64,000 nt of DNA. It comes from Thermomicrobiales bacterium. GTDB taxonomy: Bacteria; Chloroflexota; Chloroflexia; Thermomicrobiales; UBA6265. The translations under genes and the position numbers were made by a program. A model generated the notes under the pieces. It was not told where the DNA came from. It made no database searches and saw only the letters and a list, made by a program, of their open reading frames with translations. The first letter of the stretch is position 1; the number at the start of each line of letters is the position of its first letter. Location: positions 3,795-67,794 of the forward strand of contig JBHOQQ010000070.1 of the NCBI GenBank assembly GCA_042408955.1. The letters run 5' to 3'. Positions 3,522 through 35,950 of the stretch are shown piece after piece.

Positions 3522-3605
3522 CTTGTGCACACAGGCGGCGGCCGGGTGACCAGAGACCGAGCGCTCGCGCCCGGCCGCCGCACCGCCTGTCATGAGGTAC
3601 ACCCG

Positions 3606-5114
3606 ATGACCAAGCCGTTGCTGGCCATGCACAACATCCACAAGCGCTTTCCTGGCGTCCACGCGCTCAACAACGTGTCGATCGAAGTGCACGCTGGTGA
3701 GGTTCTGGCGCTTGTTGGCGAAAATGGCGCTGGCAAATCCACGCTGATGAAGATCCTCGCCGGGGCGATCCAGCCAGACGAGGGCAGGATCGAGATCGAC
3801 GGCCAACCGGTGACGTTCCACACGCCGCGTGACGCGCTTTCGCTTGGCATCGGGATCATCTACCAAGAGCTCAGCTTGGTCGATGCCCTCAGCGTAGGGG
3901 AAAATATCTTCCTGGGCGACCTCCCTCGGCATCCCAAGATTCCAGGCAAAGTCGATTGGCCCACGCTCTGGCGCCGCACAGCGGAGATTCTGAACCGCGT
4001 CGGGGCACACGTGCGCCCGCAAACTCCGGTGCGACACCTGAGCGTGGCCCAAAAGCAAATGGTTGAAATCGCTCGCGCGCTCGCACGCAACGTGCGGATC
4101 CTGATTCTTGACGAGCCGACTAGTGCGCTGACAACGCAAGAAACGGAAACTCTCTTCGATATCATTGCCTCCCTCCGAGAACGTGGAGTGGGCATCATCT
4201 ACATCTCTCACCGGCTGGAGGAGATCTTCGCGGTCGCGCAGCGTGTCACCGTTCTCCGCGACGGCCAGCTCGTCGGGACACTGCCGATCGCTGAGGCGAC
4301 ACACGAGCGCCTGATCAGCATGATGGTTGGCCGCGACCTAAGCAATCTCTTTTCGCGTGCCGCCGCGACCGAAGGGCCCGTGCGCCTGGAGGTACGCGGG
4401 TTGCAGCGCGCTGGCGTGCTGCGAGATATCAGCTTTCATGTTCGCGCAGGCGAAATTCTCGGTATCGCTGGCCTGGTTGGTTCGGGGCGCACCGAGCTTG
4501 TACGCTCGATTTTCGGCGCTGATCCGATCGACGGAGGCGAAATCTTATTGGATGGCAAGCCGGTGACGATTCGATCCCCGCGCGATGCCGTCCGCCTCGG
4601 TATCGGCCTTGTTCCAGAGGATCGCAAGCAGCAGGCATTGCTGCTGAGGATGGCCGTCCGCGAGAATATCTCCCTGCCTGTGCTGACACGCCTGGGCTCC
4701 CCGATGTTCCCATCGCGAGCACAGGAGCGTAGCCTGGCAAGCCACTTCGTCACGAACCTCCGCATCCGCACTCCGTCAATCGAGCAGAACGTGAGTGCCC
4801 TCAGCGGTGGGAATCAGCAAAAGGTCGTTATTGCCCGCTGGCTGGCCCTGCAACCCAAGGTGCTCATCTTAGACGAGCCGACGCGCGGCATCGACGTTGG
4901 CGCCAAGGCCGAGGTGCACGCACTGATTGCCCAGCTTGCCGAGCAAGGCGTGGCGATCATCATGGTCTCCTCCGAGTTGCCGGAAATTCTGGGCATGAGC
5001 CATCGCATCCTGGTTATGCGCCAGGGCAGGATCACCGCCGACATTCCGCGGGAAGACGCCACGGAAGAGCGGATCATGACCGCGGCGACCGGCCAGTTTG
5101 CGGAGGTGGCGTAG
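3606..5114 (+). CDS. Sugar ABC transporter ATP-binding protein (duplicated NBD, RbsA/MglA-like)
   Basis: Walker A GENGAGKST, second NBD GLVGSGRTE, signature LSGGNQQK, Walker B ILILDEPT and VLILDEPT. ATG 3606 follows GAGGT; the upstream 27 codons of the ORF-track call look non-coding. Confidence 0.9.
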   Translation: MTKPLLAMHNIHKRFPGVHALNNVSIEVHAGEVLALVGENGAGKSTLMKILAGAIQPDEGRIEIDGQPVTFHTPRDALSLGIGIIYQELSLVDALSVGENIFLGDLPRHPKIPGKVDWPTLWRRTAEILNRVGAHVRPQTPVRHLSVAQKQMVEIARALARNVRILILDEPTSALTTQETETLFDIIASLRERGVGIIYISHRLEEIFAVAQRVTVLRDGQLVGTLPIAEATHERLISMMVGRDLSNLFSRAAATEGPVRLEVRGLQRAGVLRDISFHVRAGEILGIAGLVGSGRTELVRSIFGADPIDGGEILLDGKPVTIRSPRDAVRLGIGLVPEDRKQQALLLRMAVRENISLPVLTRLGSPMFPSRAQERSLASHFVTNLRIRTPSIEQNVSALSGGNQQKVVIARWLALQPKVLILDEPTRGIDVGAKAEVHALIAQLAEQGVAIIMVSSELPEILGMSHRILVMRQGRITADIPREDATEERIMTAATGQFAEVA

Positions 5115-6087
5115 GGGAATTGACAGCCGCGAGCTTGGCCGCGATCTCGGCGTTGATCCCCCACTTCGGCGGATAAAACGGCTCCACCGGGCCGGCAGCC
5201 GGCCGGAATGTTCTCTTCAGGCGCGTCCGCTCACTGCGCAGGTCGGGGAAAGCGATACGCGAGTACTTATCCACCTCGCAGAAGAGGTTCTGGCAATCGA
5301 TGGCGTGCAGTGAGCGGCCCCAGAGCGACTGAAACCGCAAACCGAGCCGGTCAAACTCCGCCTCTTGCCGCTCGACCATCCAGTGGATGACCGCGGGCAG
5401 CGTGAGCGATCCGGTATGGACGAAGCACTTGCGAATGCCGCGCACCGCGCCCGGTCCCGGCACGGTAAAACCGTTCTCGTCGAAGTCGAACAACTCGCTG
5501 TAATTCAGGTCGATCGCAAGCTGGTAGGCCAAGAATGGCCCAACCAGCGGGTAGGCCAGCAGCAGGCGATAGACGGCGTCCAAACCGCGGGAGCGCGCGA
5601 GCTTCGCTGGCAACCGGTCGCGCAGCATCGCCTCGACCAAGGCCAGGTGCTGGCGATGCTTGCTTCGGGGGCCGCAAGCGGAGCCCGGCGGCAGGATAAA
5701 GGCGCTGGTGTAGATCGCATCTCCGTTGTCCAGCGCCGCCTCGAGGGTAGTAGCGAACGCGGCGGGATCGAAGGAACCGGTGCAGATCGGCCCGTGTGCT
5801 GACTCGAGCCGTTGCCAGGTTGCAATCCGGCTGAACAGGCGGAAGAGAACGATCCGCAGCACCGTGTCCTCCGGCGAGAATCCGGGTTGATAGATCACCT
5901 CACGGATGAGGAACTGGGAGACCCGGTCGCTGGCGCGATAGGCGTTGCAGAATCGATAGGCGCGTAGGATCGGATCGGCGGTCCAAGGCGGCGGTGCGCC
6001 ATCGAGGCGGCGGAAAAAGATGGCCTGCCGCTCGGCGGCAAAGCGCCAGTAGGTATCGAACACAGTCGACCGTGGGAGGGGCTGCAT
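5074..6087 (-). CDS. aGPT-Pplase-like protein (putative DNA base hypermodification family); assignment from memory of family motifs
   Basis: 337-aa ORF. N-terminal TYWRFAAERQAIFFRR...PPWTADPILRAYRFCNAYRASDRVSQFLI, and central GPFLAYQLAIDLNYS plus VPGPGAVRGI. I recall these as signatures of alpha-glutamyl/putrescinyl thymine pyrophosphorylase-type proteins. The 3' end overlaps the convergent ATPase gene by 41 nt. Confidence 0.5.
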   Translation of the reverse strand: MQPLPRSTVFDTYWRFAAERQAIFFRRLDGAPPPWTADPILRAYRFCNAYRASDRVSQFLIREVIYQPGFSPEDTVLRIVLFRLFSRIATWQRLESAHGPICTGSFDPAAFATTLEAALDNGDAIYTSAFILPPGSACGPRSKHRQHLALVEAMLRDRLPAKLARSRGLDAVYRLLLAYPLVGPFLAYQLAIDLNYSELFDFDENGFTVPGPGAVRGIRKCFVHTGSLTLPAVIHWMVERQEAEFDRLGLRFQSLWGRSLHAIDCQNLFCEVDKYSRIAFPDLRSERTRLKRTFRPAAGPVEPFYPPKWGINAEIAAKLAAVNSPTPPPQTGRSPRS

Positions 6088-6192
6088 GCTGTTACATCCG
6101 AGGTATCCTACCTAGTGCCGTCCGGCTGGTGACGATTTCAGATACTGAGATCCTTGCGCGCAACCAGGCCCGAGGCCCGTGGCTCGTGAAAG

Positions 6193-6954
6193 CTACTCTT
6201 CGGCAAACTGGAAGAGCGAGCAGCCGCCATCCACCAGCAGGACGGCGCCGGTCATGTAGTCCGCGGCGGAGGAGCAGAGGAACGCCGTCGCTTTCGCCAC
6301 TTGCTCGGCCGTTTGTAATTGACCCAGCGGAATGACGTGCCGGATGCGGCGGGCATACTGCGGCTCTGTCTCCATCTGGTGCTTGGCGAGCCCCGCGTAG
6401 ACGATCCCAGGAGCGATCACATTGACCAGAATCTTATGCTTGGCTAGCTCGCGCGCCATCGATTTGGCAAGCATCCGCACGCCAGCCTTGGTCGCCGAAT
6501 ACGCCGCGATCTCCGGCCACGGCACCTCCTGGACCCAGGTGCCCGTAAAGATAATTCTCCCTGGCCGCCCCCGCGCGACCATCAGCCGGGCAGCCGCCTG
6601 CCCGACGTTGAAACAACCGGTGAGATTCACATCCATGTGCTCCTGCCATTGTGCGGGTGTGATGTCCAGAAATGGGATGCCGAAGCCGATGGCTTGGTTC
6701 GCAATAGCGATATCCAGCGGGTCAATGGCAGCCAGGACAGCATCAATCGCTGGGCGATCGCGGACATCGGCTTGCACGTAGGCGACATCGCCGTGCTGGC
6801 GCGCCCGCTCCAACCAAGGTGCTGCTTCCTGTGGCGATTTCCGATCAATGAGCGTCACGCGAGCGCCGAGCCGGGTTAGCTCTGCGGCCATCGCCGAGCC
6901 GATATCGCCCGCCCCACCGGTAATCACGATTCCCAATCCCGCGATACCTTCCAC
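6193..6954 (-). CDS. SDR-family oxidoreductase
   Basis: TGGAGDIGSA (TGxxxGxG) and YSATKAG (YxxxK). GTG 6954 is preceded by GGAGGG. Confidence 0.9.
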   Translation of the reverse strand: MEGIAGLGIVITGGAGDIGSAMAAELTRLGARVTLIDRKSPQEAAPWLERARQHGDVAYVQADVRDRPAIDAVLAAIDPLDIAIANQAIGFGIPFLDITPAQWQEHMDVNLTGCFNVGQAAARLMVARGRPGRIIFTGTWVQEVPWPEIAAYSATKAGVRMLAKSMARELAKHKILVNVIAPGIVYAGLAKHQMETEPQYARRIRHVIPLGQLQTAEQVAKATAFLCSSAADYMTGAVLLVDGGCSLFQFAEE

Positions 6955-35875: not shown

Positions 35876-35946
35876 GGCGCCATAGCCAAGCGGTAAGGCA
35901 CGGGTCTGCAAAACCCTGATCGGCGGTTCGAATCCGCCTGGCGCCT
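35876..35946 (+). tRNA. tRNA-Cys (GCA)
   Basis: Folded by hand. Acceptor GGCGCCA/UGGCGCC, D arm GCC..GGC, anticodon loop CUGCAAA, T arm GGCGG-UUCGAAU-CCGCC, discriminator U. 71 nt; 3' CCA is not exactly encoded (CCCA). An extended -10 TGATAAAAT lies at 35833-35841. Confidence 0.9.
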
Positions 35947-35950
35947 CCCA

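Follow-up and report, generated by a model that had tools for sequence, protein, structure and literature searches.

In a 64,000-nucleotide stretch of DNA from a Thermomicrobiales bacterium (NCBI GenBank assembly GCA_042408955.1, contig JBHOQQ010000070.1, positions 3,795 to 67,794 of the forward strand), hereafter the window, we find a stand-alone gene of the family PF18723 (HMUDK_hel, formerly aGPT-Pplase clade 1). Judged from its sequence and that of its relatives, this copy is old and functional, it is most likely of foreign origin, and it is unrelated to the sugar-acid genes that surround it. Its product, here called P0001, is apparently catalytically intact and works without partners. The reading that we favour, tentatively and at slightly less than even confidence, is that P0001 is an old, horizontally acquired accessory enzyme acting on foreign (phage-derived) hydroxymethyl-pyrimidine DNA or nucleotides, and a single-gene relative of the anti-phage cassettes that contain PF18723. 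We favour a foreign substrate because the cell is unable to make 5-hydroxymethyl-deoxyuridine (5-hmdU) by any known route.

5074..6087, minus strand: stand-alone PF18723 gene, 337 amino acids, protein P0001 (list of open reading frames and translation)

Family assignment, conserved residues and predicted fold

The Pfam profile of PF18723 matches P0001 with 340.9 bits (cut-off 25) and an E-value of 7.4e-102, covering profile positions 2-280 of 281, and a search of the whole genome reproduces the same match. An earlier reading, made from the sequence alone, had assigned the 337-residue minus-strand frame at 5074-6087 to the aGPT-Pplase family from its motifs. The frame is present as described, the quoted motifs (WRFAAERQAIFF, PPPWTADPILRAYRFCNAYRASDRVSQ, GPFLAYQLAIDL and GPGAVRGI) are all found in P0001, and the family call was right at the level at which it was given, the Pfam check that it proposed returning PF18723 over the full length. 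In JGI and UniProt, PF18723 proteins carry the label 'alpha-glutamyl/putrescinyl thymine pyrophosphorylase clade 1'. The family comprises 4,507 clusters at 50% identity (match E <= 1e-3), and its motifs are common to more than 7,900 homologues, as scored on close proteins. P0001 is also matched by phrog_2396 of PHROGs, a group of unknown function, at E 1.5e-57, while neither NCBIfam nor PADLOC has a model that matches it.

PF18723 is the sole Pfam family reported for P0001. Clade 2, the amino acid:DNA transferases (AADT), was ruled out as its family, since PF18724 has no match in P0001 even at E <= 1 and a 12-sequence profile compared with gp51 of phage M6 gave nothing meaningful; as a positive control, M6 gp51 itself matches PF18724 at E 1.4e-46. 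In a Pfam scan of the M6 reference proteins gp55 falls into PF18723, gp51 into PF18724 (ADDT) and gp54 into the kinase family PF18748. PF18723 thereby takes in M6 gp55, and it also takes in the C-terminal domain of SP10 gp186. The closest phage protein is gp38 of Brevibacterium phage LuckyBarnes (37% identity, tblastn), whose gene adjoins a thymidylate-synthase homologue and two glycosyltransferases. Literature searches under PF18723, HMUDK_hel or 'DNA base hypermodification protein' found no papers.

The sequence-only reading had further described the enzymes of this family as acting on 5-hydroxymethyl-dU that has been pyrophosphorylated by a 5-hmdU DNA kinase. The family was right, but the reaction has been shown only for clade 2 (PF18724/AADT) and not for clade 1. 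The account of the action was thus borrowed from a sister family, since the transferase activity belongs to clade 2, of which M6 gp51 is a proven glycine:DNA transferase (PMC8989533), and the clade 1 protein gp55 was dispensable in the published reconstitution.

Conservation was assessed in three alignments, A1 with 12 rows, A2 with 93 rows and A5 with 73 diverse members (4 phage and 69 bacterial). In A5 the residues R20, R51, D54, D193, G213, E271 and K274 are invariant, and N48, G183, F185, C270, Y275 and R277 are conserved in at least 90% of the members; all of these are kept in P0001. Most of them fall into four blocks:

5914..6048, minus strand: N-terminal block, residues 14-58 (W14...R20-Q21...F46-C47-N48-x-x-R51...D54-R55-x-S57-Q58), with R20, R51 and D54 invariant in A5
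5503..5562, minus strand: helix-hairpin-helix-like segment, residues 176-195 (LAYPLVGPFLAYQLAIDLNY), with D193 invariant and G183 and F185 nearly so
5437..5460, minus strand: Gly/Pro-rich loop, residues 210-217 (VPGPGAVRG), with G213 invariant in all alignments
5257..5301, minus strand: putative active-site helix, residues 263-277 (IDCQNLFCEVDKYSR), with the Cys270-Glu271 dyad, D264, K274 and R277

Among close homologues the conservation is tighter: N48 is invariant in both A1 and A2, as are G211 and G217, which are nearly invariant in A5, while P212, invariant in A1, is nearly so in A2. In a profile-profile comparison the segment 176-195 aligns with GFGPWIGFKIAD of M6 gp51.

The AlphaFold2 model of P0001 (93 homologues) is all-helical, with a pLDDT of 93.3 and a pTM of 0.90. 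When this model is compared with BFVD using Foldseek, it matches SP10 gp186 with a template modelling score (TM) of 0.75, a root-mean-square deviation of 2.7 Å and an E-value of 8e-15. SP10 gp186 is an experimentally validated 5-hmdU DNA kinase in which a PF18723 domain is fused to the kinase. Beyond it nine family members match at E <= 1e-3, and the matches include members from PhiW-14, phiRSL1, Nodularia and Microbacterium phages. Models of clade 2 'amino acid:DNA transferases' match more weakly (probability 0.99-1.00, E 8e-3 to 9e-2, TM 0.42-0.48).

In the PDB a fold search gives nothing significant (best E 0.17), and a sequence search with the family profile matches no chain. The weak fold matches (E 0.17-2, TM about 0.3) are almost all helix-hairpin-helix (HhH)-GPD glycosylases, and a HhH DNA-glycosylase-like fold has been assigned to the family in the literature (PMC5889632). 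The HhH-GPD glycosylases (OGG1, AlkA and 3-methyladenine glycosylase II) are the only kind of solved structure that the fold search brings up, with matches that are non-significant (E >= 0.17, TM about 0.3). They appear to have in common with the P0001 model an all-helical, two-lobe architecture and a HhH-like motif. However, where the glycosylases have the catalytic Asp of the GPD motif, P0001 has, as we read the sequence, a Gly/Pro loop followed by GAVRG.

The known phage members of clade 1 (M6 gp55, Serratia phage 3M_086, PhiW-14 and the C-terminus of SP10 gp186) belong to the same Pfam family as P0001, have the same invariant residues and are predicted to have the same fold (TM 0.59-0.75, E down to 8e-15); Serratia phage 3M_086 stands here for the gp160-type protein of ViI-like phages. 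The phage copies are accompanied by, or form fusions with, a dUMP hydroxymethylase, a 5-hmdU DNA kinase and a clade 2 transferase, whereas the genome of P0001 has none of these enzymes.

The only relatives of P0001 with a proven mechanism are the AADT proteins (PF18724; M6 gp51 and ViI gp247) (PMC8989533). Their fold is related, and the alignment matches their GP[FW] motif, their catalytic Cys and one conserved Arg to P0001. The profile-profile alignment (hhalign) is weak, with an E-value of 0.0078 and a probability of 5%; it pairs C270 with C247 of gp51, R258 with R235 and D264 with E241, in addition to the GP[FW] helix-hairpin-helix-like motif. C247 is the sole Cys in the gp51 block that holds the essential active-site Cys of the literature. 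In clade 2 this Cys and a proximal Glu are essential, and the Cys attacks C6, giving an exocyclic C5 methylene (PMC8989533). Cys270, aligned with the catalytic Cys, is therefore a putative active-site residue. The acidic partner is placed differently, E271 and D264 in P0001 versus the pair E241/E243 in gp51. A further difference is that PF18724 is found on phage-sized contigs, while the PF18723 clade is found on long bacterial contigs.

A solo gene and its relatives

The assembly is 4.33 Mb long and 96.7% complete, and it contains one copy of PF18723. The ThyA family (PF00303) is absent from the whole genome, and the same search was positive in 10 of 14 genomes. The cell makes its dTMP with ThyX, here a tandem-domain flavin-dependent thymidylate synthase with two Thy1 domains in one 613-residue frame (contig C31, 2544-4016, outside the window). 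The kinase family PF18748, the transferase family PF18724 and PF12851 (TET/JBP) were not found in the genome either, in searches that had no positive control.

Further, we searched the genome by tblastn and phmmer for the proteins that accompany PF18723 elsewhere. The queries were the thymidylate synthase (TS)-like enzyme, the ACP-like protein, a 309-residue unknown protein, the M78 peptidase, M6 gp54, the Ploopntkinase3 protein, the Tmk-like fusion domain, MazG-MazG_C, the partner of about 190 residues and the 740-residue metallophosphatase; Nmad2 was not searched for. Only two matches were obtained, presumably AcpS and thymidylate kinase, both housekeeping proteins. The latter is the one frame found with the kinase queries (M6 gp54, Ploopntkinase3 and the Tmk-like domain; phmmer), at E 8e-8. 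The sequence-only reading had seen no kinase, hydroxymethylase or phage gene around P0001 and had offered a cellular stand-alone member as one explanation. The first observation holds, also when extended to the whole genome, and the second is supported. With ThyA-type hydroxymethylase, TET/JBP and 5-hmdU kinase all absent, the substrate probably comes from outside the cell's own DNA metabolism.

PF18723 is rare in the phylum. Of the 61 relatives 6 have it, all of them in the window's own family, where it reaches about 16%; among 300 other genomes of the phylum the count is 6 (about 2%). Within this one family the solo copies occupy at least four different loci, and the copies are intact in at least three of them besides that of the window. 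One is the SDR/ABC transporter locus of the window, its sister species G001 and P0003; the others are a hydantoinase locus (P0014, G019), a luciferase-like/LacI locus (P0045, G027) and a DAO/alpha-beta hydrolase locus (G013). In addition, the copies of P0021 and G007 lie at a locus divergent from a TS-like cassette. In a maximum-likelihood tree P0001 belongs to a well-supported clade of 37 members, in which the TS-linked copies are nested among the solo copies.

Of the ten further genomes in the phylum that carry PF18723, three have a ThyA-family gene, always directly beside PF18723; therefore the TS-like partner is specific but optional. The three neighbour pairs lie on contigs G007:C75, G104:C4 and G110:C412, in lineages that otherwise have no ThyA.

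Between P0001 and its syntenic orthologue in the sister species, which sits at the same solo locus, the ratio of nonsynonymous to synonymous divergence (dN/dS) is 0.15 at a dS of about 1.0. The gene is not a decaying relic, because it is intact, has kept every invariant residue and is under purifying selection in its solo location. The GC content at third codon positions (GC3) is 0.79, compared with 0.66-0.78 for the neighbours, and no flanking direct repeats surround the gene. A recent insertion was ruled out, as the GC3 is native-like, there are no flanking repeats and the nearest tRNA gene is 30 kb away.

Homologues at 53-66% identity adjoin cassettes of TS-like, ACP, ACPS and HTH-M78 genes, and at 53-58% identity homologues occur with genes for ACPS, HTH-M78 and peptidase C1 together with MazG_C. 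Two Thermomicrobiales homologues (64-66% identity; L010, 1244-7014, and L021, 6866-9033) are divergent from a TS-like cassette. This cassette encodes the TS-like enzyme, an ACP-like protein of about 95 residues, the 309-residue unknown protein and a 4'-phosphopantetheinyl transferase, as well as an HTH_3 repressor, an M78 peptidase and a papain-like peptidase. In an integrase-bounded island (L023, 344-7869) a homologue with 58% identity lies between two ThsB-type TIR genes, and a TIR-effector-like MAP3K_TRAF_bd/TPR protein comes next.

Another module recurs beside close homologues (L025, 5982-8822; L027, 1634-4497; L029, 5676-8473; L030, 5445-8277), and L023 (4409-4954) and L028 (3926-4504) are also listed with it beside PF18723. 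Its first protein, the partner of about 190 residues (181-208), has no Pfam match and contains the invariant motifs D-x-x-E-H-x-E and H-D...Q-L-x-H-x-A-x-H-x-x-K. The second, of about 740 residues, has an N-terminal metallophosphatase domain and, at residues 437-567, a sub-threshold thymidylate-synthase match (E 0.042). The homologue P0119 adjoins both, and neither is encoded in the window's genome.

Fusions are found among representatives at 45-57% identity, namely a Tmk-like kinase fused to PF18723 and the order PF18723-MazG-MazG_C. In P0195 (1007 residues) the order is NADAR-PF18723-N6_N4_Mtase and in P0193 (672 residues) PF18723-MT-A70. The fusions with DNA methyltransferases link the PF18723 domain to DNA-level modification modules.

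The tails of the close homologues are also of note. Endings of the QLxLF type, resembling clamp-binding motifs, occur in 13-19 of 81 close homologues, compared with 0.2-1.5 expected from shuffled tails, and this points to a possible action on DNA at replication forks. The variants QLxLF, QxxLF and QLF follow a variable linker in P0019, P0021, P0051, P0053, P0062, P0064, P0068, P0082, P0086 and others.

One member of the family is part of a validated defence system. In the E. coli system NTTI, gene 3 encodes a 340-residue PF18723 protein (DefensePredictor, Science 2026, PMC13092281 supplement), and the system also holds a thymidylate-synthase homologue and Nmad2 (PMC13092281). Like P0001, NTTI gene 3 is a PF18723 protein of stand-alone length. 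However, in NTTI and in the TS-like/HTH-M78/ACPS cassettes PF18723 is accompanied by regulators and by a thymidylate-synthase homologue, a dNMP kinase, and Nmad2 or ACP-type proteins, whereas P0001 has an SDR gene and an ABC transporter as neighbours, and the cassette genes were not found in its genome in a search that left out Nmad2.

Proposed activity and competing explanations

Because C270 aligns, if weakly, with the catalytic Cys of clade 2, we propose the following mechanism. The enzyme would engage a C5-substituted uracil, with 5-hydroxymethyl- and 5-phosphomethyl-uracil as candidates, either within DNA or perhaps as a nucleotide, and a glycosylase-like pocket with the helix-hairpin-helix would hold the base. 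Cys270 would then attack C6 by Michael addition, by analogy with clade 2, with E271 and D264 as general acid or base, and the C5 leaving group would be released. The resulting exocyclic methylene would finally be captured by a nucleophile or a reductant. Survival as a solo gene under purifying selection, in a genome unable to make 5-hmdU, argues for an activity that is independent of partners.

A bolder proposal, which we consider rather improbable, is that solo PF18723 proteins are single-gene immune effectors. They would recognise 5-hydroxymethyl- or 5-phosphomethyl-uracil in phage DNA that is entering the cell or being replicated, and the attack by Cys270 would trap the base, either as a dead-end adduct or by linking DNA and protein covalently. 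Here no partner would be needed, because the phage supplies the substrate. Such a protein could be a host counter-measure specific to thymidine-hypermodifying and hydroxymethyl-uracil phages.

Several observations weigh against an accessory enzyme that acts on foreign DNA or nucleotides. To our knowledge, activity has been demonstrated for no PF18723 member. The clamp-binding-like tail is missing from P0001, which ends in ...AAVNSPTPPPQTGRSPRS, and from its orthologue. The Tmk and MazG fusions suggest that some relatives act on free nucleotides and not on DNA. In the window the gene lies outside any defence island, and no PADLOC model covers the protein. There is the non-significant outcome of the PDB fold search, and the sequence relationship to clade 2 is weak (hhalign E 0.0078), with nothing found by the smaller profile. 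The searches for PF18748, PF18724 and PF12851 ran without a positive control, and about 3% of the genome is missing from the assembly. Finally, the M6 pathway has been reconstituted in vitro with gp54 and gp51, the clade 1 protein gp55 being dispensable (PMC8989533).

It is also conceivable, although we judge it unlikely, that P0001 modifies the cell's own DNA or nucleotides, aided by partners that lie elsewhere or have escaped recognition and by an undetected source of hydroxymethyl-uracil, leaving a low-level epigenetic-type or restriction-protective mark. The fusions that join close homologues to NADAR and to DNA methyltransferases suggest that resident DNA is the target, the clamp-binding-like tails of relatives suggest action at the replication fork, and three partner-family searches had no positive control in an assembly that is 96.7% complete. 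However, no ThyA-type enzyme was found in a search whose control worked, nor did tblastn and phmmer find TET/JBP, three kinase types or the partners of five cassette types, and the solo copies lie at unrelated loci that have no neighbour in common. A solo, long-resident gene under purifying selection would also suit the repair of oxidised thymine (5-hydroxymethyl-uracil or 5-formyl-uracil), in which a glycosylase-fold protein reverses or excises the lesion without a partner. The weak but consistent PDB fold matches, all HhH-GPD glycosylases (OGG1, AlkA, 3-methyladenine glycosylases), and the fold assigned in the literature (PMC5889632) agree with this, and the clamp-binding tails of the relatives would fit replication-coupled repair. 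Yet presence in about 2% of the phylum's genomes and about 16% of the family is not the pattern of a housekeeping gene for repair, the conserved Cys-Glu dyad fits transferase-type C6 chemistry and not glycosylase chemistry, and relatives sit in inducible cassettes and defence islands; we therefore regard repair as doubtful.

The sequence-only reading had offered a remnant of a DNA-modification system as an alternative. Historically this may be so, as close relatives stand beside TS-like cassettes, but the copy itself is intact and has a dN/dS of 0.15. That P0001 is a functionless orphan, left after the loss of a TS-like/HTH-M78 cassette, is very unlikely. P0021 and P0019, the closest of the homologues linked to a cassette (64-65% identity in A2), are nested in the same clade, ThyA-type genes occur in PF18723-bearing genomes of the phylum only beside PF18723, and the cassette genes were not found in this genome; against this, the frame is intact with all invariant residues, selection is evident at dS of about 1 between two species at the same solo locus, and at least three other independent solo loci have intact copies. 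We give hardly any credence to an enzyme of the sugar-acid pathway that acts on a small-molecule metabolite and is co-transcribed with the SDR gene. The gene does lie 105 nt downstream of that gene on the same strand, no terminator was detected in the gap and the arrangement is kept in the sister species. However, the linkage is confined to the genus, with SDR orthologues in three other genera lacking PF18723 beside them, PF18723 copies elsewhere have unrelated neighbours, and the family is otherwise associated with nucleotide or DNA enzymes.

Stand-alone cellular homologues were reportedly noted as early as 2013 and again in 2018. The occurrence of P0001 is unsurprising, since cellular stand-alone homologues of these phage proteins are already in the literature (PMC5889632). 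PF18723 is nevertheless a large family next to a well-studied DNA hypermodification pathway, with one member in a validated defence system. The solo copy is a clean candidate for assigning the chemistry of the family, since one expressed protein would be enough for a test, with no pathway to rebuild. Such an assignment would make clearer what the 'second paralogue' of hypermodifying phages does, and it could possibly yield a new tool for modifying DNA pyrimidines.

Local context of the gene

The immediate surroundings of the gene, and its non-conserved end, are the following:

6193..6954, minus strand: upstream SDR gene (Pfam adh_short), context only, outside the system
6088..6192, minus strand: spacer of 105 nt from the SDR stop codon to the PF18723 start codon
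5074..5154, minus strand: C-terminal tail, Pro/Ser/Thr-rich and non-conserved, residues 312-337 and stop, not aligned in orthologues
3525..5114, plus strand: convergent sugar ABC transporter ATPase (two Pfam ABC_tran domains), context only

The start codon is correct, because homologues align with P0001 from its very beginning. The syntenic orthologue has 16 residues fewer than P0001. The SDR gene lies upstream on the same strand across a gap of 105 nt, and the last 41 nt of the PF18723 gene overlap the convergent ABC ATPase frame, both as the earlier reading had claimed. A scan of the spacer found no promoter or terminator consensus above chance, and the spacer is poorly conserved compared with the sister species. 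Co-transcription with the SDR gene is possible.

According to Pfam the other neighbours in the window are an aldose 1-epimerase, two sugar ABC transporters, a GntR/FCD regulator and an enolase-superfamily dehydratase. These are genes of sugar and sugar-acid catabolism, in line with the neighbourhood described before. The SDR orthologues in G019, G031 and G004 are unlinked to PF18723, and in other genera the SDR and ABC ATPase orthologues are linked neither to each other nor to PF18723. The SDR-ABC junction exists only in the window's genus. As the linkage is absent in other genera, the local synteny has no functional signal, and on this ground we reject the idea that the gene works together with the SDR gene or the sugar cluster. 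The only tRNA gene of the window, tRNA-Cys (GCA) at 35876-35948 on the plus strand, lies 30 kb away and is unrelated to the PF18723 gene.

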